A stretch of DNA of 64,000 bases from Clostridia bacterium. Lineage in GTDB: Bacteria > Bacillota > Clostridia > Oscillospirales > CAG-382. The notes below the pieces were generated by a model. The model was not told the DNA's origin. It did not search any database and saw only the letters and a list, made by a program, of their open reading frames with translations. The stretch spans positions 104,764 through 168,763 of the forward strand of contig JAFQHL010000045.1 in the NCBI GenBank assembly GCA_017397955.1, in the 5' to 3' direction. Every line of letters begins with the position of its first letter. Position 1 is the first letter of the stretch. Of the stretch, positions 21,180 through 55,540 are shown piece after piece. The position numbers and the translations under genes were made by a program.

Positions 21180-21256
<77 letters not shown>

Positions 21257-21305
21257 AAATATATGACACGGTCAACCCCCGAGGGGAGACCCTGTATTGT
21301 TAAAA

Positions 21306-21394
21306 TGGTGCCGGAAACCGGGCTTGAACCGGTACGAGATTTGAGTCTCACGGGATTTTAAGTCCCGGGCGTCTGCCAATTCCGCCACTCCGGC
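21306..21394 (-). tRNA. tRNA-Leu (anticodon UAA), long variable arm, CCA encoded
   Basis: The reverse complement reads GCCGGAGTGGCGGAATTGGCAGACGCCCGGGACTTAAAATCCCGTGAGACTCAAATCTCGTACCGGTTCAAGCCCGGTTTCCGGCACCA. Anticodon stem CGGGA/TCCCG with loop CTTAAAA. Confidence 0.93.
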
Positions 21395-34051: not shown

Positions 34052-34079
34052 GACCCTCGTGCCAACTTGCACGAGGGTC
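34052..34079 (-). terminator. terminator after relaxase gene
   Basis: GACCCTCGTGC-CAACTT-GCACGAGGGTC 11-bp stem immediately 3' of the mobA stop. Confidence 0.65.
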
Positions 34080-34085
34080 TCTCTA

Positions 34086-35450: not shown

Positions 35451-35768
35451 TCACCTCTTTTCAGCGCGATAGGATTTCTGTCTGCAACCATTAGAGCAAT
35501 ACTGCGCGTCGGTGCGCTTGGAAGAAAAGATCTTTCCGCAGACCTTGCAGATATGCTCCGAGTGATGCGCTAACTTTCTTTCCTCTGTCCGTTTGCGCTC
35601 GGCTTCGGCACAACAAGCATCACTGCAATATTTACGGAAATTACAGATCGTGTAATATTCCTTGCCGCATTCAAGGCAGACGTGCTTGCGGACGGTGTAC
35701 CACTTCTTGTCCTCATACCTTGCCCTCAAAAAATCTTGGTTCTCATATTCCCACTGTGCATTTGACAT
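35451..35768 (-). CDS. cysteine-rich double zinc-ribbon protein (relaxase-coupled)
   Basis: Two C-x2-C-G...(K/Q)YCS-x2-C modules. The stop abuts the mobA ATG. The start is set at MSNAQWEY after AAGGAG. Paralog of 38112-38522. Confidence 0.65.
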   Translation of the reverse strand: MSNAQWEYENQDFLRARYEDKKWYTVRKHVCLECGKEYYTICNFRKYCSDACCAEAERKRTEERKLAHHSEHICKVCGKIFSSKRTDAQYCSNGCRQKSYRAEKR

Positions 35769-35862
35769 ACTACTTGCTCCTTTCTTGTGTAACGATTGTA
35801 AAGATATTGGCGCGTCGCGACGACACATAACCTCGTAGAGCGCACGTCTGCCGCAGGCAGTA

Positions 35863-35899
35863 CACCGCCGACTTTGTCGGTGGTGAGTAAGTGCGCCCT
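35863..35899 (+). promoter_or_regulatory. oriT (MOBQ/RSF1010-type): inverted repeat plus nick-region consensus
   Basis: CACCGCCGAC-TTT-GTCGGTGGTG (35863-35885) is followed by AG-TAAGTGCGCCCT (35888-35899). This matches the R1162/RSF1010 arrangement (IR followed by TAAGTGCGCCCT) as I recall it. A degenerate second copy AGTAAGCGCCCC lies at 35911-35922. Confidence 0.7.
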
Positions 35900-35945
35900 T
35901 CGGGAAAGAAAGTAAGCGCCCCGGTCTCCCGAGACGCTTTTTCCG

Positions 35946-36155
35946 TTATTCTGCTTTCTTGGATATAGCGCATAGCCGGTTCTCCAATTCCTCAAGATCG
36001 GCTACATTTTTTACCCAAGGAAAGACTTTTTCAAGAATCGCGCCCTCTTGAATGAGCCGCCTTGTACGCGCTTTTTGTTCTTTGGAGCGATTTCTCATCT
36101 GTGCTTGCTCCAAGCGGTGTTGCTCTTGAATGAGCTTTTTCTGTTCGTCTAACAT
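35946..36155 (-). CDS. DUF3847 protein (relaxase-associated coiled-coil)
   Basis: MLDEQKKLIQEQHRLEQAQMRNRSKEQKARTRRLIQEGAILEKVF. The start is set after GGAGGAA. DUF3847 plus MobA/MobL adjacency is common in Firmicute mobilizable elements. Confidence 0.7.
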   Translation of the reverse strand: MLDEQKKLIQEQHRLEQAQMRNRSKEQKARTRRLIQEGAILEKVFPWVKNVADLEELENRLCAISKKAE

Positions 36156-36256
36156 TTTTACGTTTCCTCCGTGATTGCATTTTTCATAGGTTTTGATATC
36201 ATCGTTCGCTCCGCATTCGGTCTTTGTGATTGCAAAAACGCCCTTTTTTGATATCA

Positions 36257-36583
36257 TCAAAAGGATTTCAAAAATCCCAAAAGGACTTGATCATCTACGT
36301 TTTCTTCCTCATCCATACTGGCAGGAGAGACGGGAGTGGCATACTGTAATGCCGAAAGTATTCTTTCAACAAAAGCATCCTCTTTCTCCCGTGTCTCAAA
36401 ATACGGATCGTTTTCAAGCCTTGCCTTGCGCTCATAAAAATCATTGACCGCCCGAGACACAAGCGCAGCGTATGAGCTGTATTTCGAACGGTCACGGTTT
36501 TGAAGATAATCGTAGGCTTTTCTTTCTTCCTCGTTGGCAAGATCAAAACGTAGGCAAAGCGGCTTTATATCTTGCTTTGCCAT
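36257..36583 (-). CDS. putative ParR-like partition adaptor
   Basis: The 108-aa gene is translationally coupled to parM-like (TGATG overlap), in the position of parR in parMRC loci. No motif-level support. Confidence 0.4.
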   Translation of the reverse strand: MAKQDIKPLCLRFDLANEEERKAYDYLQNRDRSKYSSYAALVSRAVNDFYERKARLENDPYFETREKEDAFVERILSALQYATPVSPASMDEEENVDDQVLLGFLKSF

Positions 36584-37521
36584 CAGAGCTTACCGCCGTT
36601 CTGCTTCATTTTCAGTTTGGTCAAGAACTCATATCCCTTTGCCGTGGCGCAAATATCATCCTTTATAACCACTCGATTGGGATCGTACTGACCGAAATTC
36701 TTTATCAGACAACCACCGCCGCCTACAACGTAGAGCTTCATAAGGTCGGGGTTATATTCGTGCTCTCGGAGCTTGCGGAAGATGCCCTCAACATATTCAA
36801 TGGCAACGCTGCGAATGACCATCAAATATTTCTCGGCAATATCAAGAGTGCCAAAGCGAAGGACACCCTCGATGATCGTATCATCGGGAACAGAACCAAA
36901 GCGGCGCATAAGCTGTTCGCGGATGTTCAGTACACATTGATGTGTGCCGTATTTCTCGGTAAACATCTTTTCGACTATCGGGCGGTGATCGTTGATATAC
37001 ATTACGTTCATTGTTCCGTTGCCGATGTCACAGATCATATTCACACCGCGAAACTCGCCCATTTGGTTGGTAACTGCCGCGAAGCCCTGCGGTAAAATAT
37101 CAGCACCTACGAAGTCCACGTGAAAAGTTCTTTTCTTAAAAACAAAATCCACGTGAGGCTCTCGGAGAAGATAAGCCTTGAACTCGTCCTTTTGCTCACT
37201 TACCCAAGTCAGAGGAAGTCCCGCAGCAAGATAGACCGACGCGCTCTCCAAGTTCCTTGCATAAAGCTCACGGGCAACAGCGGCAAGGGTGAGGATATAA
37301 TAGTCATCGTCGTTCTGCTTCTCGGGAATAAACTCCTTGTGTCCCTCCCCGATGATATAATACCGCCCGTTATAGACAAGCATATTGCTTGTAAAGGTCG
37401 GCTCGGTGTCATAGGCTTTCACGCTTGTGCGGAAACAAGCGGATGCAGTTTTGATGTTCCCATAGCCGTGGTCGATGCCGATCACGATGGGCGTCCCGGA
37501 TTGATTTTTGTTTACGTTCAT
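36583..37521 (-). CDS. ParM/StbA-family actin-like segregation ATPase
   Basis: Actin-fold motifs are present: IVIGIDHGYGNIKT (phosphate 1), MICDIGNGTMNV (phosphate 2), LYVVGGGG (adenosine). Confidence 0.8.
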   Translation of the reverse strand: MNVNKNQSGTPIVIGIDHGYGNIKTASACFRTSVKAYDTEPTFTSNMLVYNGRYYIIGEGHKEFIPEKQNDDDYYILTLAAVARELYARNLESASVYLAAGLPLTWVSEQKDEFKAYLLREPHVDFVFKKRTFHVDFVGADILPQGFAAVTNQMGEFRGVNMICDIGNGTMNVMYINDHRPIVEKMFTEKYGTHQCVLNIREQLMRRFGSVPDDTIIEGVLRFGTLDIAEKYLMVIRSVAIEYVEGIFRKLREHEYNPDLMKLYVVGGGGCLIKNFGQYDPNRVVIKDDICATAKGYEFLTKLKMKQNGGKL

Positions 37522-37645
37522 AATGATTTCTCCTTTTTCTTTTTACGGGGCATTATTTGTCCCTCTTAATCTTTAATTATCCCTTGCATAACATTTCAAG
37601 GGCTTTTTGTGATATAATTGTAAAAACAATTATGGGGGTATTAGA

Positions 37646-37987
37646 ATGGCGAACACGAATGACTATTTAGACCACTTGTTGAAAGGTTTGAACTATCAAA
37701 AGCAGATCGTAATAAAACAACTCGACAAAATAGATATTGCACCACCCGATGCTTTGACGCTATTTGAAGAATGGCAACAACAAATTATAGAATACGCAAT
37801 CGCCAATCCGCCGGTCTATTATCTAAAGTCACTCATTCTTCTTCAAGATACAAACCAACACATTCAAAGCATTTCATACTCCTACTGCAATGAATTTGAA
37901 TATACAGATTATGTGTCTGCTTCGATTTGTTGGAATGAAGAAGATTATAATAGCCTAACCCGATCTAAATCAGTGGTCAAAATTTGA
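37646..37987 (+). CDS. hypothetical protein
   Basis: 113-aa ORF divergent from parM-like; no family recognised. Confidence 0.4.
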   Translation: MANTNDYLDHLLKGLNYQKQIVIKQLDKIDIAPPDALTLFEEWQQQIIEYAIANPPVYYLKSLILLQDTNQHIQSISYSYCNEFEYTDYVSASICWNEEDYNSLTRSKSVVKI

Positions 37988-38111
37988 CCACTGATCCGTA
38001 ATTTTCAGTGGGCGAATTTCGCCCGTTGATTTCAAAGTGTCAAAATGACCCTTTGCTCCTTGATTTCATCGGGTGTTTTCCGCCCGATGATTTTTACATA
38101 AGAAAAGCGAC

Positions 38112-38522
38112 CTATGATCTCTCACGAGTCGCAATCCTTTTCTGTTCCGTTACGGATAAGCAAGTGTTCTTTGTGACTACTTGGTTATCCGTAACACTTT
38201 TACGGTATGCTTTCTGTCTGCAAGCGTTGGAGCAATAAACACCGTCCGATCTTGTCGGCGTAAAGACCTTGCCGCAGACCTTACAAACGCGGTCTTTCCG
38301 CGCTTCACGCGCCCGCTCTGATAATTCCTTGCGATAGCCGCGATTTCCACACAGATGGTAAAGACAATACTTTTTTGTACTGATCTGCGTGTAAAACTCT
38401 CTGCCGCAGCCCTTGCAGATGATCTTTCTGACCGCTAAATTCGGCTTTTTACCCGATATTTTCTCTTGATACCAAGCCTTCAGCGTCTCTTGGTTTTGGT
38501 ATTCCCATTCGCTGTTTCCCAT
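38112..38522 (-). CDS. cysteine-rich double zinc-ribbon protein (paralog of 35451-35768)
   Basis: MGNSEWEYQNQETLKAWY..., CKGCGREF...KKYC and CKVCGKVF...VYCSNACRQKAYR. Same architecture as the relaxase-coupled copy. Confidence 0.65.
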   Translation of the reverse strand: MGNSEWEYQNQETLKAWYQEKISGKKPNLAVRKIICKGCGREFYTQISTKKYCLYHLCGNRGYRKELSERAREARKDRVCKVCGKVFTPTRSDGVYCSNACRQKAYRKSVTDNQVVTKNTCLSVTEQKRIATRERS

Positions 38523-38545
38523 TTTAATTTCACCTCCAATCAGAA

Positions 38546-38585
38546 AAGCGACCTGCCTTTTACAGCAGATCGCTTGATTTGTTTA
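38546..38585 (-). repeat. 40-bp perfect direct repeat (copy 1) containing a terminator hairpin
   Basis: AAGCGACCTGCCTTTTACAGCAGATCGCTTGATTTGTTTA is identical to 40406-40445. The hairpin AAGCGA.CTGC/GCAG.TCGCTT is followed by T-rich sequence on the minus strand and sits directly after the AbiEii stop. Confidence 0.85.
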
Positions 38586-39548
38586 TTATCTTGCATCTTT
38601 ATCTTTATTTTCTCGCGTTTTCCACAATGCCATCGGATGCGCCTTTAGACGTTCTAATGCTTCTCCCTCAAAAATAATCTCGGGACAATACTGTCCTTTT
38701 TTGAAGTTCTCCAAGAAGGAGATATCTTTATCCGTAAGATAAAGGTTTTTATCGAGAAAAGCCTTAACAGCATCCTTAGCGGCATTCAGCTCAAAGGCAT
38801 CGCGATCACGAATCACGGGTTTTAGATCGGTCATAATCTTATGCGGTGTAATCGTTTCCATCGCCCGATAATCAATCTTGGTTATCGGGGTGTCTGTCGC
38901 CACAGCCAAGTAGAACACCACGCTTTGGCGATACAAGGCAAGTTCGTCCTCGGAAAAGAGATCGTGACTTACCATATAATTCATATCGTAAAGATCTCTC
39001 GCCGCGCCACGAGTGAGAAGCGCCACCGTCTTTGTGGCGTAAATCTCAATCGGAGATACAGTGTTGACATCAAAGCCTCCGTCTACAATATCGTTTGGCA
39101 TTTTGATCTTCTGTGTGGGCAGAACGTGGGAACGAAGCGAATAATTGATCTCGATCTTGATATTATCCTTCATTCCTCCGGCGTTGGTATATTCAAACAC
39201 ATAGGAATAAAGACTGTGATAGGTTTTGGATTTCGGGCTCAGCGTATAACCCGAAGCGGTCATATACTTTAAGAGCTTATCTCCTATGGTTGCTCTGAAG
39301 GACATCATTTCCGTTCTTCCTACGTTAGCGCAAAAATCAAGGTCGATATCAACGGACAGACGAGGAAGATTGAAGAACAATAGATTGATGGCAGTACCGC
39401 CCTTTAGAGCAAGTTTGTTTCTAAAAAGCTCACTGCTATCGAAAAATTTCAATATTTCGCAAAGTCGTAACACCTTTTCAAAGGTATCTCTTACGACCGA
39501 AAGTTCTTTTGCCTTACGCGCAAGCTCGGTTTTATCATATATCGGCAT
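38586..39548 (-). CDS. AbiEii/AbiGii-family nucleotidyltransferase toxin (DUF1814)
   Basis: 320 aa; LALKGGTAINL...SVDIDL is the N-terminal NTase pattern. Overlaps the upstream AbiEi-like gene by 14 nt. Confidence 0.8.
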   Translation of the reverse strand: MPIYDKTELARKAKELSVVRDTFEKVLRLCEILKFFDSSELFRNKLALKGGTAINLLFFNLPRLSVDIDLDFCANVGRTEMMSFRATIGDKLLKYMTASGYTLSPKSKTYHSLYSYVFEYTNAGGMKDNIKIEINYSLRSHVLPTQKIKMPNDIVDGGFDVNTVSPIEIYATKTVALLTRGAARDLYDMNYMVSHDLFSEDELALYRQSVVFYLAVATDTPITKIDYRAMETITPHKIMTDLKPVIRDRDAFELNAAKDAVKAFLDKNLYLTDKDISFLENFKKGQYCPEIIFEGEALERLKAHPMALWKTRENKDKDAR

Positions 39549-40302
39549 CTATATCACCTCCGGATAGGTTGTTCCATAAATTTTTAGGATAGGTTAAGCG
39601 CCATTTATTACTGAAATCCATATCCGCGCCCTGCATATCTTTGAGCAAATATCTTGAACTGTTTCCCGCGCGCACCTTACATATACGGAAGAATTCGTCT
39701 GATAGGTCAAAATTGTTACGGAAATGCTCAAATATAAAGCCAGCCTTCTGATAAAGAAAACACTTGCCATAGGCTTCAAGATAGGAAAGCATTTTGCTCT
39801 CGTTTAATATGGGGATTGCAGATATACACTGTATCAGTTCTTCAAAGCCCATATCCTTTTCAAAATCGTTGACAGAATCCAAAACCGTCCGTTCAAGATC
39901 TGTGATCCTCTCGCCGCGCGATGTGGTTTCTATACCTACACCAACGCTTGCAGGTACTCTCGTGAATACGTTACCTCCAAACTCAAAGGTATTGAACTTA
40001 CTCTCAGAGGACACGAATACACGATATGATACTTGATTGGCATAACCGTGATATTCAAACGCGGAATGATGAGATATAACGGCGGTTTCGGTTAACTTTG
40101 TGCCGATCAGATACTTGTTGGCAACGGGTTCTTTGTCAAGCGGATTGATTGCTGAATACAATCCCTTTCGTATCTGCACGACCGCGCCGTGCTTGGTATA
40201 ATACAATAGCATTGAAGCTGCCGTTACGTTATTACCCGTCAAAGCAACTGCTTCATCAAACGAAAAACAACCAAGTTGTAGCAATTTTTCCGTATATTTC
40301 AT
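39535..40302 (-). CDS. AbiEi-family antitoxin / transcriptional regulator (type IV TA)
   Basis: N-terminal wHTH-like region and a C-terminal AbiEi_4-like domain; paired with AbiEii. The start is set at MKYTEKLL after AAGGAGGA. Confidence 0.75.
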   Translation of the reverse strand: MKYTEKLLQLGCFSFDEAVALTGNNVTAASMLLYYTKHGAVVQIRKGLYSAINPLDKEPVANKYLIGTKLTETAVISHHSAFEYHGYANQVSYRVFVSSESKFNTFEFGGNVFTRVPASVGVGIETTSRGERITDLERTVLDSVNDFEKDMGFEELIQCISAIPILNESKMLSYLEAYGKCFLYQKAGFIFEHFRNNFDLSDEFFRICKVRAGNSSRYLLKDMQGADMDFSNKWRLTYPKNLWNNLSGGDIDADI

Positions 40303-40334
40303 AAAAAACATCCTCCTTTCGATTCATTGTTTAT

Positions 40335-40387
40335 ATTATACTCGATTATCGGTTGTTTGTCAATATGTTTGAGAACATTTCAAACAT
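40335..40387 (-). promoter_or_regulatory. abiE promoter with adjacent inverted-repeat operator candidate
   Basis: On the minus strand: TTGACA (40363-40358), 17-nt spacer, TATAAT (40340-40335). Immediately upstream lies ATGTTTGA-N7-TCAAACAT (40365-40387). Confidence 0.7.
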
Positions 40388-40405
40388 AAAATTCTGATAA
40401 AAACT

Positions 40406-40445
40406 AAGCGACCTGCCTTTTACAGCAGATCGCTTGATTTGTTTA
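40406..40445 (-). repeat. 40-bp perfect direct repeat (copy 2), terminator after recombinase gene
   Basis: Identical to 38546-38585; lies 3' of the serine recombinase stop (40497). Confidence 0.85.
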
Positions 40446-40496
40446 ATATTTACTTGATAATAGCGGTATTTTCAATACCTTTGGGCAATACTTAAA

Positions 40497-42389
40497 TTAA
40501 GCGCTCGGTACTTGTCTGACCTCAAAGGGCAGCGTCGGGGGATTATCCTTCATATCCTCCGCGAAGCTCTCGATGATATCCGCTTGGGTTTGAGCAAACT
40601 GTGCGGCTTTCTTCGCCTTTTCCTCCGCGCGTATTCTCTTACGACGGGCAAGCTCCTTGTCTCTGCGTTTGCGGTACAGTTCCTTCCAATACCGATCCTT
40701 CTCCATCTGCTCCAATTCCTCGGGTGTAGGTTCGGGCGCGGGAATACTGATATTGCCGACAAAGTTCAAATAGATCTCGACCTCTTGGATACGCTCTCCT
40801 GTGGAACGGTCGGGGGCGTGAACTACGATCTTGTCGATAAACTCGTTTATCATCGGCTTTGTAAGCTCGGAGAAGTCTGTGTACTTGGCGGCAAGAGACA
40901 GAAAAGCGTCGATGTTAACGCTGTCTTTCTCAAACTGTTCTACCGCATTTTCCGCTTCGGATATGGATATTTTGAGTTCCTTCTGCTCCTGCTCATAGCC
41001 GCTTGAGAGCATATCGAACTTTTCCTCGGATATTTTACCGACAGCGTAGGATTCGTAAAGACGTTTATAGAGAACGTCCAATTCCTCATAGCGCCGCTTG
41101 TCCTTGTTCAGCTTACGCTTTAATTCCTTTGCGGTGTTGTCTTGCTGTACCGCCGACGCTTCACGAACACGGGCAATAAAGTCATCCTTGTTGGCAATGG
41201 CGTATTGGCTGACCGTTCTGACGGTAAATAATACGATCTCTCTTAAAGAATTGGTACTGATATGATGTGCAAAGCATCCCTTGCCCTTATTCTTCTTGGA
41301 TAACTTATAAGTTGAGCAATTATACGCATCCGTTCCCGAATGCTTCGTTCCAATCGAATCCGTAAAAGGACGCGAGCGTTGGTTATACATCTTCTCACCG
41401 CAATCGGCGCAATAGACAAGTCCCGTAAATGGATTGGATTCTTCAATCGTATCACAGCGTCGGGGCGTTCCCAAGAGCTTTTGGCACAACTGCCAAGTTT
41501 CAAGGTCAATGATGGGTTCTTGAGTCCCTTCAAATACTGCCCACTTTTCGGGTGGGTTCTGAATACTTTTCTTATCCTTGTAGGATTTGCTTGTGGTACG
41601 GAAGTTGACAGTATATCCAAGATAGTCGGGCTTGGTCAGTATATGCTTGACCATCGTGCCACTCCACTTATATGGGTCTAACACATCAAGGCGATTCTTA
41701 TATACACCATTACTCCGCTTGGCTTGATAATAGCCGGGTGTTTCGATCTTATCCGCTTGCAGTTGCTTGGCGATCATCTGTATGCCTTTGCCCTCAATGC
41801 AAAGCCGATAGATGCGTCTGACGACCTCTGCCGCTTCTTCATCCACAAGCCAATGATGCTTGTCCTCGGGGTCTTTCTTGTACCCATAGGGCGCGTGAGA
41901 GGAAATATGCTTTCCCGAATTGCCGATGACCTGCTTGGTGGCTCTGATCTTGCGGCTGCAATCTCGCAAGTACCATTCATTCATCACGTTCAAAAAAGGT
42001 GCGAACTCGCTACTTCCTTGATTATCACTATCCACTCCGTTGGCAATGGCGATAAAGTGGATGTCCTTCTGCCCGAAATAGATCTCGGTGTAATAACCGA
42101 CTTCAAGGTAATTACGACCGATACGGCTCATATCCTTCGTGATGACCATACCGACCTTACCTGCTTCAATGTCCTCGATCAGACGTTTCCAATCGGGTCT
42201 GTCGAAGCTGCCGCCGCTGTAACCGTCATCGGTGTAGTGGACGATATTGGTGTAGCCGTTCTGTTCGCAATAGGTTTCGAGCATTTTCTTTTGATTCACG
42301 ATGGAATTGCTATCGCCAAGCTGCTCGTCGTCTCTCGATAGTCTTTCATAAAGGGCAGTAATCAATCCGTCAATCTGCTTGTTGTTCAT
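40497..42389 (-). CDS. large serine recombinase (TnpX-like)
   Basis: N-terminal resolvase domain (ALYERLSRDDEQ...SNSIVNQKKML...GYSGGSFDRPDW...VITKDMSRIGRN), recombinase domain, Cys-rich zinc ribbon (CADCGEKMY...YNCSTY), and a long coiled-coil tail; 630 aa. Confidence 0.92.
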   Translation of the reverse strand: MNNKQIDGLITALYERLSRDDEQLGDSNSIVNQKKMLETYCEQNGYTNIVHYTDDGYSGGSFDRPDWKRLIEDIEAGKVGMVITKDMSRIGRNYLEVGYYTEIYFGQKDIHFIAIANGVDSDNQGSSEFAPFLNVMNEWYLRDCSRKIRATKQVIGNSGKHISSHAPYGYKKDPEDKHHWLVDEEAAEVVRRIYRLCIEGKGIQMIAKQLQADKIETPGYYQAKRSNGVYKNRLDVLDPYKWSGTMVKHILTKPDYLGYTVNFRTTSKSYKDKKSIQNPPEKWAVFEGTQEPIIDLETWQLCQKLLGTPRRCDTIEESNPFTGLVYCADCGEKMYNQRSRPFTDSIGTKHSGTDAYNCSTYKLSKKNKGKGCFAHHISTNSLREIVLFTVRTVSQYAIANKDDFIARVREASAVQQDNTAKELKRKLNKDKRRYEELDVLYKRLYESYAVGKISEEKFDMLSSGYEQEQKELKISISEAENAVEQFEKDSVNIDAFLSLAAKYTDFSELTKPMINEFIDKIVVHAPDRSTGERIQEVEIYLNFVGNISIPAPEPTPEELEQMEKDRYWKELYRKRRDKELARRKRIRAEEKAKKAAQFAQTQADIIESFAEDMKDNPPTLPFEVRQVPSA

Positions 42390-42402
42390 TCTTGAACTCC
42401 TT

Positions 42403-42621
42403 TCAAGCAGGACGGCTCATTTGTGGTGACTCTATTATACCACACTTTTCGCCGTTTGTCGATACCTCATTTTTAATCATTCGTAAAATTTTATCCTCCA
42501 TCGTTTCTTTTGCGGTCTCGCTGAAGAAAACCTTCAGCTTGTAGGTGGTGCTCCCGATGCGGCGGGTGATGACGTTTTCCTTCAAATTGTTATTCTTTTC
42601 GTTCAATAGGCTTTCCTCCAA
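42403..42621 (-). CDS. TnpW-like transposon-encoded small protein
   Basis: RRIGSTTYKLKVFFSETAKETMEDKILRMIKNE is the pattern of TnpW-family proteins; sits directly upstream of the recombinase. Confidence 0.65.
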   Translation of the reverse strand: MEESLLNEKNNNLKENVITRRIGSTTYKLKVFFSETAKETMEDKILRMIKNEVSTNGEKCGIIESPQMSRPA

Positions 42622-43029
42622 AATTCAAATTTAGATTGGTCGCCGATCTGAGCGCGTCTGTCAGCCTCCTTACGCTTCGTTATTTGCGTCTGTGATCGAC
42701 TTATGTAAAGCCCTGCAACCGCATTTGCAGGGGAAATATCCACGTGGACACGATGTCCACTCGGGTTATATAGCGCGTTACGGATAATCTGTCTGTGTGG
42801 TGTGGGTCATTTTGACCCATACCACGCTCTCCGATTAAACGTAACAGCATACTTTTTATGTATCCGTGCGCTGTTCTCCTATCCCATTCTCTGCGACGTA
42901 TTCCGTATTGGCGTGCTCGGTCAAAAGACTGTCTTGGCACACATCGCCTACGGTAATATCCACACGGCGTTATTCGATTTTCAAGGAACGTAAATGTATA
43001 AGGCTAAATTGTGGGGGCAGTGTTCAAGT

Positions 43030-44250
43030 TACCTCTCACTATTTAGTTGGGAACTTTCTCGGCAAAAATTAGCCATCGACCAAGAAATAAATATCCCTCT
43101 AAGTGGTAGGCAGCGAGAATGGCTAAAACCCGCCACAAAATCAAAAAAATATTTTATGACCTCATCTAATAGGACAAAAATACGCGAATTGTATAGTGTC
43201 TGTAAAAATTCCTCTCTATTAGGTAGCCAGCGAAATTGGTAAAAACCCGACACGATTTCAAAATATCCCCCTAAGTAGTAGGCAGCGAAAAGGGCAAAAA
43301 GACAACCATAGCCTCAAAAAACTCTCCTTCACTTGACAACGGACATTTTTTCATTGAAATCGGGGGTAGGTAAACTCACCACTCTCAAATTTTCTCTCCT
43401 ACTATTCGTTGCTGACTTTTTGGGAAAATTTTGCGTGCCTTTCTAATATTCGTTACTGACTTTTTTGCAAAATAATAGCCTGAGAACATCAAAAAAATCC
43501 CCCTCTAAGTGGTAGCCGGCGAAACGACCCAAAAAGGGCAAGATTTTCAGAAAAAATTTTACTCCTCAATAGGTAGGCAGCGAGAACGGCTAAAACCCGA
43601 CATTTCCTCTAATATTTAGTTGGGAACTTTTTTGTCGTTTGAGCCAAACTTTTTTGAAAATAAAAGTCCCTCTAAGTGGTAGCCAGCGAGAAGCCTTGAT
43701 TTTTGCACTTTTGTGTAAATTTGTCCCTCTAATTGGTAGGCAGCGAAATCGCAGAAAAAGGGCAAGATTCTGAAAAAATATTTATCCCCTCAATAGGTAG
43801 CCGGCGAAAACGCGTAAAACCCGCCACTTTTTTCGTTTCTATTTTATTACCGTATCGAAAACGGCAAAATTGTCCTACGAAAACAAGCTCTCAATTGGTA
43901 GCCATCGAAAACCCCAATTTTATACCCCTCACTATTACGTTGCTTACTTTTTTTGAATTTGGCCGAAAATTTTTTCAAAAAAATTGAAGAAAATTTTTGC
44001 TCCCTTAAGTAGTAGGCGATAAGAATGGAGAAAACTCGACACTTCCTCTAATATTTAGTTGGGAACTTTTTTCACGTTTGGACGAAAAATACTTTGAAAA
44101 ATATGTCCCTCTAATTGGTAGGCAGCGAGAAGCCGCGATTTTTGCACTTTTCAGAAAAATTGTCCTCTACTTTTTAGTTGGGAACTTTTTTGAGAAATTT
44201 TGCGTGATACTTACAAATAATTTATCCTTCTAAGTAGTAGGCAGCGAAAA
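43030..44250 (+). repeat. non-coding array of ~20 degenerate 25-29-nt direct repeats (two motif classes) with recurring inter-repeat segments
   Basis: Class A CCCTCTAAGTGGTAGSCAGCGARAA starts at 43095, 43211, 43267, 43499, 43562, 43667, 43724, 43785, 43887, 44001, 44106 and 44225. Class B CCTCTAATATTTAGTTGGGAACTTTTTT starts at 43032, 43394, 43438, 43606, 43925, 44045 and 44164. Mean period is ~60 bp. No credible ORF. Confidence 0.9.
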
Positions 44251-44295
44251 GGGCAAAAATATAAGGCTGTTCGTAAAAAACAGCCTAAAAATTGA

Positions 44296-44330
44296 AAACG
44301 GCGGTGGAATTTTGTTTTCCACCGCCGTTT
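44296..44330 (-). terminator. rho-independent terminator after the 44343-45705 operon
   Basis: AAACGGCGGTGGAA-TTTTGT-TTCCACCGCCGTTT 14-bp stem. A second hairpin AGGCTGTT-N8-AACAGCCT lies at 44264-44287. Confidence 0.8.
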
Positions 44331-44342
44331 AAGGTCATTTAT

Positions 44343-44840
44343 TCAATTTGTTTCCATAACTCTTGCACAAGCCTCGGGTTCATATTTTATGCTTTCAATC
44401 ATTCGCTTGATGTTGTCTCGTTTCATAAAAGCTTCAATCTGATCTCGTTGTTCGTCGTTTTCAACCTCGTGTGTGATTGCTAAAACAAACCCGTTTTGTC
44501 CTTCACTGTTCATCGGATAGCCGAGTCGTTCTTCGTAGTATTCGTAAGACCACCCGCCGTTCCGATAGAAAGAAGCATAACCACTCATTCCATTACGTTC
44601 AACGGGAAAGATATTCCCGACGTTCTCATTTTCATCGTAAGCGAGGATCTGCGCTATTTCTCCATACGGAGATTTATCAAATTCTTCTGCTCCTATATCG
44701 ATCTGAAATCTTCCATCGTAGGTTTCGACTATAATCGTATCGGGGGATACAACGGACGGATCGGAAACAAAACACATATCCTCGGGCAATTCAAACGAAA
44801 AGCTCTGAGTATATAATCTTCCGTTTTTTATGTATAACAT
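44343..44840 (-). CDS. hypothetical protein
   Basis: 165-aa ORF whose start abuts the stop of the sigma-like gene; no family recognised. Confidence 0.5.
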   Translation of the reverse strand: MLYIKNGRLYTQSFSFELPEDMCFVSDPSVVSPDTIIVETYDGRFQIDIGAEEFDKSPYGEIAQILAYDENENVGNIFPVERNGMSGYASFYRNGGWSYEYYEERLGYPMNSEGQNGFVLAITHEVENDEQRDQIEAFMKRDNIKRMIESIKYEPEACARVMETN

Positions 44841-45479
44841 TTATTTTTCTTCCTTCCTGTTCGGTATAAATTTGTTCCAATTCGTATTGGTAATGCCGAG
44901 GTTTTCAAGCTCCACGGCAACCTCTACGATAGACTTTTTTCCCAAGTCCTTGATGCCCATGATCTCGTCCTCGGTAAGTTCAACAATGTCCTTTACCGTC
45001 TCATATCCTTTGGCGATAAGGCGGTTTATCGGTCTTACTGAAATATTCAATTCACTGATTCGACGCTGATACTTATCTTCACTGTAACGCTCTTCCTTTT
45101 CCAGCGCTATTTCTTTACATCTTTCCTCGTAGGTATGCTTACCGTACTTTATGTATCCAATCAACGGGGGATGATGAAGTTTAGAGATAGATCTATGCTC
45201 TAAGGTGCGGATGCGTTCTCCCGTAACGTCAAACTCTTTTGCGATAGCAGTATAGGTCATTTTCCGTGCGTAACGCATTTCGATAACTTTCTGATCGCGC
45301 GGCGGCAACGTAGAGAGCGCATATTCAAGTCCGGCAACCATATCCTCGGTTATATTATCCACGGGAATCTGTACGTTGAACCATTTATCTGTTGCAAGCG
45401 TTAAAAACAGATTGCGTGGGTATGGCTCCTTGTATGCTGCTTTAAGTATATTTTTTGTTTCATTATCCAATGCTTTCAT
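44841..45479 (-). CDS. sigma-70 region-4-like HTH protein with RpoA-CTD-like helix-hairpin-helix tail
   Basis: LPPRDQKVIEMRYARKMTYTAIAKEFDVTGERIRTLEHRSISKL (region 4 HTH), then LNISVRPINRLIAKGYETVKDIVELTEDEIMGIKDLGKKS (alpha-CTD-like). Confidence 0.7.
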   Translation of the reverse strand: MKALDNETKNILKAAYKEPYPRNLFLTLATDKWFNVQIPVDNITEDMVAGLEYALSTLPPRDQKVIEMRYARKMTYTAIAKEFDVTGERIRTLEHRSISKLHHPPLIGYIKYGKHTYEERCKEIALEKEERYSEDKYQRRISELNISVRPINRLIAKGYETVKDIVELTEDEIMGIKDLGKKSIVEVAVELENLGITNTNWNKFIPNRKEEK

Positions 45480-45705
45480 CCTCCTTGATCACTTTTATAC
45501 ATTCCTTGCACAAGCAGTATTTCGACTTGGCAGGGATAACGGCACCACAGCTATGACATACTGTTTGCTTCGGCGTTAAGACGATAGCTCCGTCCTTGAC
45601 CTCCATATCAAGATCGCATTTCGTATCGACACTCAATGCCTTTCTAAATTCTATCGGAAGAACGATCCTTCCAAGCTCATCAATCTTTCTTGTAATTACC
45701 AACAT
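45463..45705 (-). CDS. AbrB/MazE/SpoVT-family DNA-binding protein with C-terminal CxxC pairs
   Basis: ITRKIDELGRIVLPIEFRKAL swapped-hairpin motif; C-terminal CHSCG...CLCKEC. Confidence 0.75.
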   Translation of the reverse strand: MLVITRKIDELGRIVLPIEFRKALSVDTKCDLDMEVKDGAIVLTPKQTVCHSCGAVIPAKSKYCLCKECIKVIKEDESIG

Positions 45706-45816
45706 TTTGTTTCTCCTTCGCCTTCATATTATTTTACCATATTTTTTACCATTTGAAAATGGCATAGCAGTTCAATTTTTGCTGGCTCAGCAGTTCATTG
45801 ATGCTTTTATTCTCGT

Positions 45817-45958
45817 TGTCGAATAATGACGAAGGGTGCTTTGCGTTTCGACATAATATTACCCACCTTTCTATCGTGTTACGATTGCTCTTATCGCTAC
45901 GCTCACATTATAGCATAGGCGTATTGTCGAATTATGTTATAATCTCGTGTCGAAATAA
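45817..45958. promoter_or_regulatory. cluster of four TGTCGAA heptamers (operator candidates) in the regulator intergenic region
   Basis: TGTCGAATAAT at 45817, inverted TTCGACATAAT at 45847, TGTCGAATTAT at 45925, TGTCGAAATAA at 45948. Confidence 0.45.
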
Positions 45959-45982
45959 AAAAATCTGCGATTTCTCGCAGAT
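45955..45982 (-). terminator. terminator after XRE gene
   Basis: On the minus strand, ATCTGCGA-GAAA-TCGCAGAT is followed by TTTTTTT. Confidence 0.75.
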
Positions 45983-46008
45983 TATGTGGATAAGCTATTC
46001 AATTTCGT

Positions 46009-46338
46009 TTATTTTCTTCTTGCCGTTCTCAAAAGAGCATCGAGCACTTCAAAGATTCTTTGCTGTTCTTCAGCAGGAAGTGTTGCGATCTCGTCGGAAA
46101 GGCGAGAGGTGCGGTTCACGTAACCGTTCTTTATGACATCACGGAAAAGGTCGTCAGCCGTAATGTCAAGACAGTCGATGATCTGAACCAACAATTCCAA
46201 CTTGATGTTGTATGCACCGCGCTCCAACGCACTCATATAGTTCGGAGAAATACCGATCATCTCGGCAAGCTTCTCTTGGGGAATCTTTTTCTGTTTGCGA
46301 ATTTCTTTAATTCGGCGTCCGATCTCCTGTTCAATCAT
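46009..46338 (-). CDS. XRE-family HTH transcriptional regulator
   Basis: IGRRIKEIRKQKKIPQEKLAEMIGISPNYMSALERG is a canonical HTH_3. Confidence 0.85.
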   Translation of the reverse strand: MIEQEIGRRIKEIRKQKKIPQEKLAEMIGISPNYMSALERGAYNIKLELLVQIIDCLDITADDLFRDVIKNGYVNRTSRLSDEIATLPAEEQQRIFEVLDALLRTARRK

Positions 46339-46354
46339 AGTTTCACCTCCAATT

Positions 46355-46435
46355 CAATCGGTATAGCATAAGTATAATTGTTTTCCGATTGATTTAGAAG
46401 TAAGGTCTCCGATAGGAGCAATCGGAAACCGATAG
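46355..46435. promoter_or_regulatory. CAATCGG/CCGATWG palindromic motif set upstream of the XRE gene (operator candidates)
   Basis: CAATCGG at 46355-46361 and its complement CCGATTG at 46385-46391; CCGATAG at 46409-46415; CAATCGG-AAA-CCGATAG at 46419-46435. Confidence 0.45.
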
Positions 46436-46555
46436 ACAATGCCGCTTTTCGATTAGAAAATTGAAATTTGTAATGTCCGCTCAGCATTGTCTTGTTGATC
46501 GTCTTTATATTATATCATAAAAATGTTAAACTTTCCACCACGATAAATAGCAAGA

Positions 46556-46586
46556 CGGCGGTGGAAAATGTGTTATTCTCCACCGC
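46556..46586 (-). terminator. terminator hairpin after 46603-47016
   Basis: GGCGGTGGA-N13-TCCACCGCC. The stem sequence is related to the 44296-44330 terminator. Confidence 0.6.
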
Positions 46587-46602
46587 CGCAGCGTTATTGG
46601 CT

Positions 46603-47016
46603 TTATTCAGTTGTATCGTCACCGATAGCCGCCAAAGTGTTTGCGATCAATGTCTCGGTAGAAACGCCGTATTTAACCGCATTTTCATAAGAGCCGTCCA
46701 TCGTAACGATAGAAACCTTAGACTCATCAAGTGCATCCGCAACCGCGTTAAGCTCCGAAGGAGTACCAACCACTCTGTTGGAGGATGCCATTACGATGGT
46801 CTTAGTATCTGTGTTCTTTGCGTACTCAATGGCTTTTTTTAACGCATCGAGGCTTTCCGCACGGCTACCAATTGTGCTGACGGTCTCGCTGACGTCATAG
46901 CCTTGCTGCTTGCAATAGCTTTGAACCTTTTGCACTTGTCTCTCCAAGCACTCTGCCGCGCCGTCGTGATTGCTTTCTCTTACGTAAACAACCACTTGTT
47001 TATTTTCAGAAGTCAT
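46603..47016 (-). CDS. resolvase-N-terminal-domain-only protein (TnpY-like)
   Basis: VVVYVRESNHDG...LERQVQKVQSYCKQQGYDV resembles a serine-recombinase catalytic domain, but there is no DNA-binding domain; 137 aa. Confidence 0.5.
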   Translation of the reverse strand: MTSENKQVVVYVRESNHDGAAECLERQVQKVQSYCKQQGYDVSETVSTIGSRAESLDALKKAIEYAKNTDTKTIVMASSNRVVGTPSELNAVADALDESKVSIVTMDGSYENAVKYGVSTETLIANTLAAIGDDTTE

Positions 47017-47102
47017 AAGACAGCTCCTTTCTCATTGATAAATCGAACGTATTTATTATACCATAAAAATTTGAAAAAATCCAGTTCTTTATCACATTTT
47101 TA

Positions 47103-47384
47103 TTACGAATATATTTGAAACGTATAAACGCTATTCTTTGTCGTGAAGATCAGATAATCTTCGCGGTATTCATACGTTCCGCAGCTTGTTTGAAGATAGC
47201 GTCCGTCTCGGCTTTCGATATACATAAATTTCTCGCCGGGGTGTTTGTGTTCGCTTTCAAACATTCCAAGTATACCTTCCATTCCGACGTATCTCATTCG
47301 CCAAGACCATTCGTTTTCCTCAGCCTCGGTGATGGGAATGATCTCTATGAGCTTGGCGATATATGCGTTTACCTTTTTAGCCAT
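47103..47384 (-). CDS. hypothetical protein
   Basis: 93-aa ORF within the co-oriented element operon. Confidence 0.45.
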   Translation of the reverse strand: MAKKVNAYIAKLIEIIPITEAEENEWSWRMRYVGMEGILGMFESEHKHPGEKFMYIESRDGRYLQTSCGTYEYREDYLIFTTKNSVYTFQIYS

Positions 47385-47396
47385 AGCTTGTCCTCC

Positions 47397-47678
47397 TTAA
47401 AGCGTATCACGATGTTCACCGCTCAACACTTCAAGCATAATCCGAGCGCCGAGCCTAAAGGCGTACGTAAATATCTCTCGCTCGTTGATCTCGGACAGCT
47501 CTGACCAACAATCGTCAAACCTTTGCAGAATGTCCTTCTGCTTTTCGTCAAGGGTTGCGGATAGGTTGTCGTGATGGGTGGCAATGTAGCCGATAAGCTC
47601 CTTTGTTTCCTTCGTGGCGATTCTGCAATCGCTGTTCGGAGAGATATTGCCGTACCATAATTCGTTCAGTACCGTCAT
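47397..47678 (-). CDS. DUF6809-like small protein
   Basis: LNELWYGNISPNSD...FDDCWSELSEINEREIFTYAFRLGARIMLEV is a pattern seen next to TnpV in clostridial elements (from memory). Confidence 0.5.
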   Translation of the reverse strand: MTVLNELWYGNISPNSDCRIATKETKELIGYIATHHDNLSATLDEKQKDILQRFDDCWSELSEINEREIFTYAFRLGARIMLEVLSGEHRDTL

Positions 47679-48025
47679 CTGTAGATCACCTCCCGCAGCA
47701 CAAACTCCTTGGCGCAGGCGCGGACGTTATTCATTTCTTGCACCCAGCGCATTTGATCTGTAGCCTTGAGTTCCTCGGTGATGCCATTCTTTTTGACAAG
47801 TCCCGCAACGATTGATTCCATCTGTGCAACCGCTTGCTCATCAATGCTGTGAAGGTGCTCGTTGAGCCTACCTTCTGCTAAAAGGGTGGTGTAAGTCCCG
47901 CGTCGGTGGTTTTTGAGAAACGCGAGATGCAGGTTGCCGTACTTGCCGATCTTATAGTCGGTCTGTTCGGGCAGTTCAAGCTCGGGGTAAAACTGATCCC
48001 CGATTTGTTTGTAGCGCAGTTCCAT
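47675..48025 (-). CDS. TnpV-like transposon-encoded protein
   Basis: MELRYKQIGDQFYPELELPEQ...IGKYGNLHLAFLKNHRRGTYTTLL..GRLNEHL..IDEQA...KATDQMRWVQEMNNVRACAKEFVLREVIY matches the TnpV family pattern. Confidence 0.8.
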   Translation of the reverse strand: MELRYKQIGDQFYPELELPEQTDYKIGKYGNLHLAFLKNHRRGTYTTLLAEGRLNEHLHSIDEQAVAQMESIVAGLVKKNGITEELKATDQMRWVQEMNNVRACAKEFVLREVIYR

Positions 48026-48296
48026 ACTGTATTCCTTTCTTTGCTGTAATGGATTAGTGGGTTTCTCAGCAGTTGAGAATAGCTTTTATTGCTCCTTTCC
48101 TCATAACTGCCGTTCTATTCACCACAAATGAGCCGTCACAGCTATGTATTTATTAGGTTCTGCGTGACGTACACACATTACCCTTTATAGAATACAATAT
48201 GGGGATACAGAAGGACTGCATCAAAGTACCCTTTGTTTTTCAAACTCTTTGTCTGACCCTAAAATTCCTGCAAAAAGTGCACGGAATTTTAAGAAA

Positions 48297-48554
48297 ATGG
48301 AACTATTATTAAATCTGATGTGCGCTGTTGCCGATAACGACACGGACCGCATAGAAGAACTGCGCATCAAAGCCGAAACTTGGAATACTTCCGTAGCTAC
48401 CGCAGGCTTTGTGAATTATATTAAGGGCATATCCGCCGTAGAAACAGATGACAAGGTAGAAGCCGTATACAGATTCAAGCTTGTTACGGAAAATTGCCCC
48501 AAAACCGTTTTTGCAAGACTGTCTGCTGAAAAGATTGAATCTTTAAACATATAG
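48297..48554 (+). CDS. hypothetical small protein or 3' fragment of an interrupted gene
   Basis: The ORF is open from 48168, with a first ATG at 48297 (MELLLNLMCAV...). Host-like composition resumes here. Confidence 0.35.
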   Translation: MELLLNLMCAVADNDTDRIEELRIKAETWNTSVATAGFVNYIKGISAVETDDKVEAVYRFKLVTENCPKTVFARLSAEKIESLNI

Positions 48555-55214: not shown

Positions 55215-55540
55215 CAACAAAAAAACGTCCCCGTCCCCTTGTCGAATCAAAGAGACGAAAACGTTAAACACAATTTAACTTTCCGCGGTACCACTCTTCT
55301 TCATCCAGTAAAGGATGCACTCAGATGCCAACACATCTTTACTCTGTAACGGGAGCTACCCGTCTGTCATTACACCTAAAACAGGTTCACAACAGCCGCT
55401 CCGCGGTGAGTTCAGCAAGCTTTTCCCAATGTCTCACACCGACCGACATCTCTCTCAAGGCGAAAACACCTGCGTACTATTCCGCATCACTGCGTTTACT
55501 AATTGCTTGGAATTTTATCACAAGAAAATTTCTTTGTCAA
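55215..55540 (-). promoter_or_regulatory. promoter plus T-box leader, specifier CUC (leucine)
   Basis: All on the minus strand. Promoter: TTGACA (55540-55535), 17 nt, TAAAAT (55517-55512). Stem I has GATGCGGAAT-AGTA, AGAGAG and GGTGTGAG. The specifier loop is GAA-CTC-A (55413-55407), and CCGTTA is the F-box. The T-box sequence GAGTGGTACCGCGG lies around 55284-55297. A terminator (55265-55224) is followed by a U-tract. Confidence 0.88.

Follow-up and report, generated by a model that had tools for sequence, protein, structure and literature searches.

The closest described counterparts of the repeat array considered here are the operator and iteron arrays of mobile elements, such as the multisite Rco operators of pLS20, the Cox/Apl box arrays of P2 and 186, and the titrating iterons (incA) of P1. 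In these systems, as in ours, many co-oriented short sites lie beside the promoter of a key gene, copy number matters, and no RNA structure is needed. Our array lies in a 64,000-nucleotide stretch of a Clostridia bacterium genome (contig JAFQHL010000045.1; the whole stretch is called the window below), within a Tn4451-like integrative mobilizable element that occupies about 34,075 to 48,200. Known operator and iteron arrays consist of 7- to 22-bp sites placed 10 to 33 bp apart, with the cognate protein encoded adjacent, whereas the array described here has cores of ~25 to 30 bp placed 38 to 127 bp apart, in two classes and with four recurring tail types, over 1.2 kb. It differs from the known arrays in unit size, in its two-class composite architecture, in length, and in the lack of a cognate protein. 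No description of it was found in the literature or databases searched, and the region gave no blastn match to plasmid and phage collections. As set out below, the array is a selectively maintained, noncoding and, most likely, cis-acting DNA module of its host element.

Several other systems resemble the locus in part. Clustered regularly interspaced short palindromic repeat (CRISPR) arrays share the ~60-bp period, the single orientation, and the repeat-spacer look, but here the repeats are divergent and form two classes, the "spacers" recur in families and range from 10 to 100 nt, and no Cas domain was detected in the 20 proteins scanned. ToxI-like arrays of type III toxin-antitoxin systems are likewise noncoding direct repeats that follow a terminator and precede a gene; ToxI-type repeats are near-identical, 34 to 45 nt long, and followed by an endoribonuclease toxin. 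That assignment was rejected on a negative Tandem Repeats Finder result and because the next genes are tnpW and a recombinase gene, with no ToxN/AbiQ-type toxin. The parC site of type II ParMR systems also consists of direct repeats on an element encoding ParM and ParR. Such a site sits just in front of parM and is found wherever parMR is, whereas our array lies 5.5 kb away from parM, does not occur in 46 relatives that have parM, and does occur where no parM was found. Iterons are 17- to 22-bp repeats spaced about 22 or 33 bp apart with an AT-rich unwinding region, and an iteron-type origin was discarded because no Rep domain occurs in the element's 19 proteins and the spacing is 38 to 127 bp. 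Loci with pemK leaders (RF02913) share the order of array, structured leader, and recombination genes; they differ in that the window has no pemK match and carries other hairpins in its leader, and the pemK model leaves the repeats uncovered.

The array extends from 43,030 to 44,262. Profile hidden Markov models (HMMs) built from the copies detected 19 co-oriented cores, 12 of class A and 7 of class B or its variant B2, with matches spanning 43,029 to 44,254 and none below an E value of 0.8 elsewhere in the 64 kb. An earlier reading of the sequence by a model (the first-pass annotation) had arrived at the same class counts; an additional weak copy that it placed at 43,160 fell below detection. 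The class A consensus is TCCCTCTAAkTGG followed by TAGsCrGCGArAA, and class B units take the form TCCTCTAATATT followed by TAGTTGGGAACTTTTTT (unit 43602 to 43634). When ≤2 mismatches were allowed, the class A core GGTAGSCRGCGARA had 12 matches in the window, 11 of them in 43,105 to 44,249 (all on the plus strand) and 1 elsewhere; ~2 were expected, and 0 of 100 shuffles reached 12. All four matches to the class B core TTTAGTTGGGAACTTTT were inside the array (0.4 expected). The units are as follows (scores are from nhmmer).

43029 to 43060, plus strand: class B, promoter proximal, core ~63 bp from the -35 hexamer (22.9 bits)
43091 to 43123, plus strand: class A, then tail T1 (33.6 bits)
43209 to 43239, plus strand: class A, then tail T1 (25.7 bits)
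43263 to 43295, plus strand: class A, then tail T4, AAAAAGACAACCAT (31.0 bits)
43318 to 43372, plus strand: unique segment in the array, TCCTTCACTTGACAACGGACATTTTTTCATTGAAATCGGGGGTAG; TCCTTCAC to GGGGGTAG identical in L238
43393 to 43423, plus strand: class B2, the CGTT variant (17.1 bits)
43435 to 43467, plus strand: class B2 (16.2 bits)
43498 to 43526, plus strand: class A, then tail T2 (26.9 bits)
43559 to 43590, plus strand: class A, then tail T1 (27.4 bits)
43602 to 43634, plus strand: class B (23.6 bits)
43666 to 43696, plus strand: class A, then tail T3 (31.2 bits)
43722 to 43752, plus strand: class A, then tail T2 (33.0 bits)
43782 to 43814, plus strand: class A, then tail T1 (28.7 bits)
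43887 to 43915, plus strand: class A, degenerate (22.2 bits)
43922 to 43953, plus strand: class B2 (18.6 bits)
43998 to 44030, plus strand: class A, weak, then a T1-like tail (9.4 bits, E = 0.1)
44042 to 44072, plus strand: class B (23.0 bits)
44103 to 44134, plus strand: class A, then tail T3; absent from L238 (32.9 bits)
44161 to 44192, plus strand: class B; absent from L238 (22.3 bits)
44223 to 44254, plus strand: class A, then a T2-like tail; last before the terminators (30.3 bits)

Core order and core-to-core spacing (in bp) run B-63-A-117-A-55-A-127-B-44-B-63-A-61-A-43-B-63-A-57-A-61-A up to the class A unit at 43,782 and from there A-101-A-38-B-76-A-43-B-63-A-56-B-63-A. Copies are 60 to 82% identical to a reference copy, and the segments between cores recur in three to four families, three of which lie where the first-pass annotation had placed its tail families. 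A repeat search found both unit families again and revealed higher-order duplications (43,540 to 43,726 versus 43,979 to 44,165, 76%; 43,501 to 43,605 versus 43,725 to 43,829, 79%). Because the units are unequal in length and only 60 to 80% alike, Tandem Repeats Finder made no call in the array, which is not strictly tandem. The plus strand is A-rich within the array, unlike the flanks.

No open reading frame (ORF) overlapping the array exceeds 84 amino acids, and stops occur in all frames. Gene callers placed nothing across it in L001 to L010, L238, or L240 to L242 (L numbers denote the loci compared); the extra calls in L236 and L237 (119 and 72 amino acids) consist mostly of leader and at most graze the promoter-proximal unit. 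Eight of the 18 unit-to-unit spacings are divisible by 3, five of those being 63-bp B units. A decayed repeat-protein gene, for which an intact gene at the same position in relatives would have spoken, was dismissed: such a gene was looked for and none was found, unit lengths are not consistently multiples of 3, and conservation elsewhere was found. A small-ORF arrangement, with a Shine-Dalgarno-like GAGGG after a stop codon kept in the variable N4, was abandoned because there is an in-frame stop 7 codons upstream and start codons fall at inconsistent distances. The HMMs, repeat search, and ORF scan together bear out the first-pass description: the array is noncoding, has two classes of co-oriented units and recurring tails, and is not a CRISPR.

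Several further candidate likenesses of the units were considered. Local hairpins pairing the S (G/C) position of the core with a downstream GCC/GGC fit four L166 units and fail in the window copies, among which no consistent base pairing was seen. A likeness to the tRNA D-arm (TGGTAG, TTGGGA) was dropped because no D-stem can be formed, and a likeness of the class A core to the 5′ end of mobA is due to chance in relatives and absent from the window's own mobA. A two-core pattern scan of viral contigs yielded 19 matches, all attributable to chance on GC-rich contigs. Compared by eye, the DnaA box, Spo0A box, cre, LexA box, IHF, and sigma-54 consensus sequences matched only partially. CodY-box-like sequences (AATTTTCWGAAAATT, 2 to 3 mismatches) have five of their nine window matches in the array (43542 to 44160, all on the plus strand), where the DNA is AT-rich. 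Tail T3 (ATTTTTGCACTTTT; 43699 to 43712 and 44138 to 44152) is ~93% complementary to the T2-like GAAAAGGGCAAAAAT (43286 to 43300 and 44246 to 44260); the central A·G mismatch of this pairing is kept in L236, so covariation gives no support to it.

All genes of the element, including the neighbors of the array, are on the minus strand, for which the plus strand is the template. Along the direction of transcription, the order is two terminators, the array, a conserved promoter-like block, a hairpin leader, tnpW, and the recombinase gene:

44296 to 44330, minus strand: intrinsic terminator 1 of the upstream operon and distal module boundary (14-bp stem, T-run)
44264 to 44286, minus strand: intrinsic terminator 2 (9-bp stem, T-run)
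42955 to 42984, minus strand: predicted sigma-70-like promoter of the tnpW-recombinase operon (consensus match)
42622 to 42954, minus strand: structured leader (folds better than shuffles, z = -2.6 and -4.0)
42775 to 42848, minus strand: long imperfect leader hairpin, single copy in the window (compensatory changes in 4 pairs, 9 distinct copies)
42403 to 42621, minus strand: tnpW (Pfam TnpW; start called by gene finders is the ATG at 42,606)
40497 to 42389, minus strand: TnpX-like large serine recombinase, 630 amino acids (Pfam Resolvase, Recombinase, Zn_ribbon_recom, and DUF4368)

The two strong right-hand hairpins noted at first pass are intrinsic-terminator-like on the minus strand, and terminator 1 is kept in L238 despite a different upstream gene. 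The predicted promoter combines a -35 TTGAAA (42,984 to 42,979), an 18-nt spacer, and a -10 GATATT (42,960 to 42,955), and aligning five lineages (the window, L238, L236, L237, and L239) shows this block to be conserved. In L239, which lacks the array, the -35 hexamer is TTGACA and a terminator directly abuts the same promoter. Since the conserved -35/-10 pair lies between the array and tnpW, the array is upstream of the predicted promoter and outside the transcribed leader, and not within the leader of the operon as had been supposed. On neither strand does a sigma-70-like promoter lead into the array beyond chance expectation.

Between the window and L238, 42,864 to 43,060 is ~99% identical, compared with 93.7% for coding DNA, and as single-stranded DNA 42,622 to 43,035 folds better than shuffles (z = -4.0). 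The leader hairpin is tandemly duplicated in L238 (3656 to 3810), L236, L237, and L242, and may function either as a regulatory hairpin in RNA or as a signal in single-stranded DNA. Its tip (27/28 nt identical) also occurs ~150 nt from the nick of an origin of transfer (oriT) in the unrelated locus L077 (13444 to 13471). Rfam release 15 gave no match at E ≤ 1 in 40,000 to 47,000 and no relevant match in the whole window; a 561-nt search of the leader at E ≤ 10 returned no pemK and only chance microRNA-like matches to the hairpin.

The array is under purifying selection. Between the window and L238, 4-fold degenerate sites in the recombinase gene and parM differ by 0.21 to 0.24, while alignable array columns differ by 0.125 and the leader differs by 0.063; for the array columns, this is roughly half the neutral rate. 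In L236, 4-fold sites are saturated (0.52), yet A and B cores, tails T1 to T3, and the B-to-A spacing remain recognizable. The constraint seems to cover the whole unit, beyond a short binding core. At 13 of 22 junctions, a B core and the next A core are 62 to 65 bp apart, and at 8 of these the distance is exactly 63 bp (five distinct arrays, with the identical L241 and L242 left out). A distance of 63 bp corresponds to 6.0 helical turns, and the intervening sequence is of at least three unrelated tail types.

Purifying selection coexists with turnover of whole units. Twenty-four contigs from public metagenome assemblies carry an identical element together with its array (listed in 36 collection blocks). 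Two apparent length variants, L004 and L008, are scaffold gaps filled with N, and the N runs lie in or beside the array (L004, 4636 to 4735; L008, approximately 1151 to 1250); assemblers break on the array repeat, so that copy numbers from short reads are to be taken with care. Closer relatives with arrays, found through the protein database, and array-less relatives compare as follows.

L240 to L242: recombinase 98% identical, 17 units
L238: recombinase 97% identical, 18 units
L236 and L237: recombinase 76% identical, 12 and at least 11 units, respectively
L239: recombinase 75% identical, 0 units
L243 and L244: recombinase 68% identical, 0 units, with one isolated A-type match in L243

The copy-number variation that the first-pass annotation had asked about therefore exists (17, 18, and about 12 units in relatives). 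Unit order differs even within the group with 97 to 98% recombinase identity, and alignment of the window with L238 shows clean unit-level insertions and deletions; for example, the A+B pair at 44,101 to 44,220 is missing from L238. The array is absent from 80 genome loci with 55 to 67% identical recombinases. Genes upstream of it differ among relatives (an XRE-AbrB-sigma-165-amino-acid-protein cassette in the window and L240, a Metallophos gene and a homologue of a 93-amino-acid protein in L238, and HipA/HTH genes in L236 and L237), which assigns the array to the tnpW-recombinase module.

A distant version of the array lies beside the pemK RNA motif. At a locus of Faecalibacterium hattorii (L022), diverged class A units are present together with a tail, CGAAAA-N5-AAAAGACAACCAT, in common with the window unit at 43,263, and tail T4 is common to that unit and to the F. 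hattorii and metagenome arrays. A metagenome scan with a 19-base tail pattern found at least 120 loci; 96 of the 120 matches listed carry three to five class A units, with four units in L166. Spacings are conserved, and orientation relative to the downstream recombination genes is the same. A region of ~700 nt is ≥95% conserved over 60 distinct sequences while flanking genes differ; this high conservation may reflect recent spread. In the alignment of these 60 distant relatives, itself 95% conserved, 0 to 2 compensatory pairs were found on either strand. The pemK motif (RF02913, 57 bits) adjoins the distant array on the strand of the downstream genes (L166, 6594 to 6658, minus strand, and the equivalent position in ~96 metagenome loci) and is enclosed in a larger conserved stem. 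The motif was reportedly first described by Weinberg et al. in 2017 (PMC5737381), in a paper whose main text does not mention pemK; a literature search on the motif sequences and pemK returned nothing relevant.

Two types of genes follow the distant array: either Xis and a tyrosine integrase or a RepA_N-like 113-amino-acid protein (in L161-type loci; identified by sequence pattern only) with, further on, a serine recombinase (c7) or topoisomerase-like (c8) gene. A relaxase operon with its own terminator is often upstream, and in L161-type loci the module directly follows the relaxase gene. The layout of upstream operon, terminator, repeats, structured leader, and recombination genes thus recurs. 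The distant conserved region (L166, 6780 to 7260) also contains a tandem 11-mer pair (AATTGTAATTG and AATTGTAATTC) and three copies of ATTAACAGAAA, which are further candidate binding sites. In F. hattorii, a second Tn4451-like element (L022, 1 to 1760; recombinase 59% identical) is inserted beside the array-pemK-RepA_N-like module, and the insertion targets of seven copies of that element are alike (TTGG..ATGGA.TTGCTCTCGCC). In all, evidence for the array comes from seven distinct close-relative contigs, more than 20 identical copies, and 96 metagenome loci.

Presence of the array does not follow that of the genes with which it was first associated. ParM homologues are present in 46 and ParR homologues in 39 of the 80 array-less related loci, and ParM had no match in the 120 listed metagenome loci, 96 of which carry the distant array. 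The proteins proposed at first pass as binders, namely, the sigma-r4/alpha-CTD-like, AbrB-like, and XRE proteins, are not encoded in L238 or L236, where arrays are present, and their cassette occurs elsewhere without arrays. The array is independent of both ParMR and the XRE/AbrB/sigma-like cassette. Apart from relaxase and serine-recombinase families in some loci, no element-encoded protein in the flanks examined is common to all array contexts.

Our preferred explanation, held tentatively and at somewhat less than even odds, is that the array serves as a platform of protein-binding sites on double-stranded DNA through which expression of the excision genes is set. Class A and B cores would be putative double-stranded sites for a DNA-binding protein, B and A forming dyads ~63 bp apart; with many copies occupied, a large nucleoprotein complex would form just upstream of the promoter, where it would insulate the excision/integration genes and set their expression, and gain or loss of units would tune the size of the complex. 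The binding protein would be a host factor or a function general to these elements, which is the more likely since no element-encoded protein is common to the TnpW-serine recombinase, Xis-tyrosine integrase, and RepA_N-like contexts. The platform explanation draws on the co-oriented repeats, for which no RNA structure is supported, the six-turn B-to-A spacing, the position between terminators and promoter, purifying selection combined with unit turnover, and recurrence before unrelated recombinases; from these we infer protein binding, activity of the predicted promoter, and an effect on recombinase expression. Of the earlier proposals, a protein-binding array in the general sense stays the best-supported one.

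Several observations weigh against this platform. Cores are no more conserved than tails between the window and L238 (0.142 versus 0.110, not significant), whereas a model of sites with free spacers would predict greater conservation of cores. Spacings other than B to A lack helical phasing, and a test of A-tract phasing and DNA curvature detected no 10.5-bp A-tract periodicity in the array. No cognate protein co-occurs with the array in the loci compared. The 80 related loci, together with L239, L243, and L244, have no array, and since many relatives manage without it, it is dispensable. Finally, the predicted promoter is a consensus match, and in L166-type relatives no promoter could be placed, so that part of their array could be transcribed.

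The host element itself is a Tn4451-like integrative mobilizable element. Pfam and site searches identified TnpV, TnpW, a TnpX-like large serine recombinase with DUF4368, a Mob relaxase, and an oriT; its gene order presumably differs from that of Tn4451. The left end lies a few bases from the mobA stop codon (~34,075), and the right end (~48,200) was placed at the point beyond which the flanks of seven copies of a related element differ. The Pfam scan covered 20 proteins, namely, the element's 19 and an ORF at 48,249 to 48,554 just past the right end. In the left part it identified a MobA/MobL relaxase, DUF3847, and AbiEii/AbiEi, as well as ParM, which is actin-like and has a small ParR-like partner; on the right side of the array, it identified a sigma70-r4/alpha-CTD fusion, AbrB/MazE-like and XRE proteins, a catalytic-only resolvase, DUF6809, and TnpV, alongside a 165-amino-acid protein of no known family. 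Two further features bear on the alternatives weighed below:

36,583 to 37,521, minus strand: parM, encoding the actin-like ParM
35,863 to 35,900, plus strand: oriT, inverted repeat and MOBQ nick consensus

The oriT lies between the DUF3847 gene and the genes for a Cys-rich 125-amino-acid protein and mobA. It consists of the inverted repeat CACCGCCGAC-TTT-GTCGGTGGTG (35,863 to 35,884) followed by the perfect nick consensus AGTAAGTGCGCCCTT (35,888 to 35,900), i.e., a perfect MOBQ consensus TAAGTGCGCCCTT on the plus strand preceded by an inverted repeat. The nick 12-mer occurs once in each of 50 related loci. Within the array there is no MOBQ nick consensus TAAGTGCGCCCT with inverted repeat, the site at 35,888 to 35,900 being the only perfect one, so that the array does not coincide with the nick region. 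The plus strand, which carries the array motif, would be the transferred strand, judging by homology to the MOBQ nick site.

Other parts of the element and window gave the following observations. The 137-amino-acid protein encoded at 46603 to 47016 (minus strand) has only the catalytic domain of a serine recombinase (resolvase) and no DNA-binding domain. Two paralogous small Cys-rich (zinc-ribbon-like) proteins are encoded at 35451 to 35828 and 38112 to 38522 (minus strand), with homologues in 54 of the 80 related loci, and the Cys-rich module resembles the C-terminal extension of a 682-amino-acid recombinase in L022. The XRE, AbrB/MazE-like, sigma70-r4/alpha-CTD fusion, and 165-amino-acid proteins (44343 to 46338, minus strand) form a portable four-gene cassette that on other contigs (L091 to L096) precedes different cargo (restriction-modification methylase or LexA-like genes) with no array. 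No Pfam family matches the 165-amino-acid protein, for which the database holds only 22 relatives, and a genome scan with it confirmed nothing. The host part of the window contains a T-box leader and two tRNA genes (55248 to 55499 and 21183 to 21394, minus strand).

The alternatives to a double-stranded platform differ in which molecule the array would act as. It is unlikely, in our estimate, that it acts as RNA, whether as a plus-strand multi-unit noncoding RNA or as a minus-strand sponge for an RNA-binding protein or 30S subunits, maybe in ~60-nt pieces. The single orientation of all units, the A-rich plus strand, and the constraint on both cores and tails would fit such a role, as would the minus strand, on which nearly every core reads ..TTAGAGGGA.. 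or ..TAGAGGAA.. to give ~19 Shine-Dalgarno-like GGA/GAGG motifs, and the ~93% complementarity of tail T3 to the T2-like sequence. However, no Rfam match was obtained at E ≤ 1, no promoter beyond chance leads into the array on either strand, and the two strong terminators block read-through from the upstream operon; the 95%-conserved alignment of the distant relatives shows no covariation on either strand, the S position of the core has no compensating partner among copies, the T3/T2 mismatch is kept uncompensated in L236, and the copies are far too divergent for a ToxI-like array. The processed multi-unit RNA suggested at first pass accordingly lacks a promoter, an Rfam match, or covariation in its favor. 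Somewhat less likely again is a function as single-stranded DNA, in which array and hairpins would bring in primase, RNA polymerase, or factors that bind single strands, either in the recipient cell or in the course of rolling-circle replication. The motif strand is the presumptive transferred strand, the adjoining 42,622 to 43,035 folds well, the L161-type module comes directly after the relaxase gene (a place similar to that of the single-strand origin in ICEBs1), and the leader hairpin tip sits near an oriT nick in L077. Yet the array itself has no conserved hairpins, its 19 repeats are unlike the known single-strand origins, which are single structured elements of 150 to 300 nt, and the strand assignment is by homology. 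The core CGAGAA also resembles part of the ssoA RSB box, TTATGCCGAGAAAATTT (PMC4598088), but in the comparison with ssoA RSB/CS-6 this 6- to 7-mer is too short for meaning.

Two proposals that tie the array to the recombinase sites strike us as improbable to the same degree as the single-stranded one. In one, the cores are degenerate copies of the terminal recombinase-binding motif and serve as decoys for the serine recombinase or for TnpV/TnpW, placed ahead of the recombinase's own promoter, with feedback on excision that scales with array size. The sequence CCCTYTAYA-N3-TAM occurs 145 to 155 nt upstream of tnpV in 46 of 52 relatives, ending ~8 nt before the element-host junction (48,181 to 48,195, plus strand, in the window), and is probably part of the right-end recombinase site. 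It is oriented as the cores are and weakly resembles their 5′ half, CCYTCTAM-N4-TAS, which the L022-type end matches exactly; the left end (about 34,073 to 34,090), CTCTCTATTATC, is close to the unit at 43,210 (CTCTCTATTAGG). Position weight matrix best scores are 13 bits for two ends and 4 to 8 bits for the majority, with 8.8 bits for the reverse-strand control, and because the ends are mutually homologous they are not independent trials. The window's own end is off pattern at 2 positions, and the class A core also lies beside tyrosine integrases (L166-type), which is unexpected for a recombinase-specific site. In the other proposal, the array would be an evolvable "counting" device of about 19 decoy half-sites, derived from the terminal motif and loaded by the recombinase or TnpV/TnpW, whose length sets how much recombinase is needed before the ends synapse and the element excises; in a variant, the strand-specific repeats may have their effect solely in a new host, on the single strand that is transferred. 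We give still less credence to the view that the array is functionless, a short regulatory or terminal sequence that has expanded in the manner of a minisatellite and that drifts and is turned over through unequal recombination. Fast unit turnover among 97 to 98% identical recombinases, the parity of cores and tails, the many array-less relatives, and the visible higher-order duplications would follow from it; alignable columns evolving at about half the 4-fold-site rate, five or six sub-motifs and the 63-bp B-to-A spacing persisting where silent sites are saturated, and a distant version kept in at least 96 metagenome loci and two other element families would not. Least likely of all is a maintenance site of the excised circle, either a ParR-bound (parC-like) centromere or replication iterons. 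Direct repeats are typical of both, the element encodes actin-like ParM and a small ParR-like protein, and the L161-type module precedes the RepA_N-like protein. Against a centromere stand the ParM- and ParR-bearing relatives without arrays (46 and 39 of 80), the lack of a ParM match in the 120 listed metagenome loci, and the 5.5-kb distance from parMR; no motif match lies upstream of parM (37,522 to 37,680), and the TCCCT sites noted there at first pass gave no HMM match. Iterons would call for a Rep gene, which the window element does not have, and the unit size and 38- to 127-bp spacing are unlike those of 17- to 22-bp iterons or known parC sites.

Integrative mobilizable elements of gut Clostridia spread resistance and defense genes, and to our knowledge almost nothing is known of how such elements decide when to excise. 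What emerges here is a portable noncoding module, composed of terminators, a repeat array, a promoter, and a structured leader, that stands before serine and tyrosine recombinase genes and whose array is under selection while its unit number changes between near-identical elements. The motif models and loci make the question of its function directly testable. If the array proves to be a regulatory platform, it would offer a handle on the control of excision and on a host factor common to many elements; if it works as RNA or single-stranded DNA, it would represent a new class of repeat-based element function.

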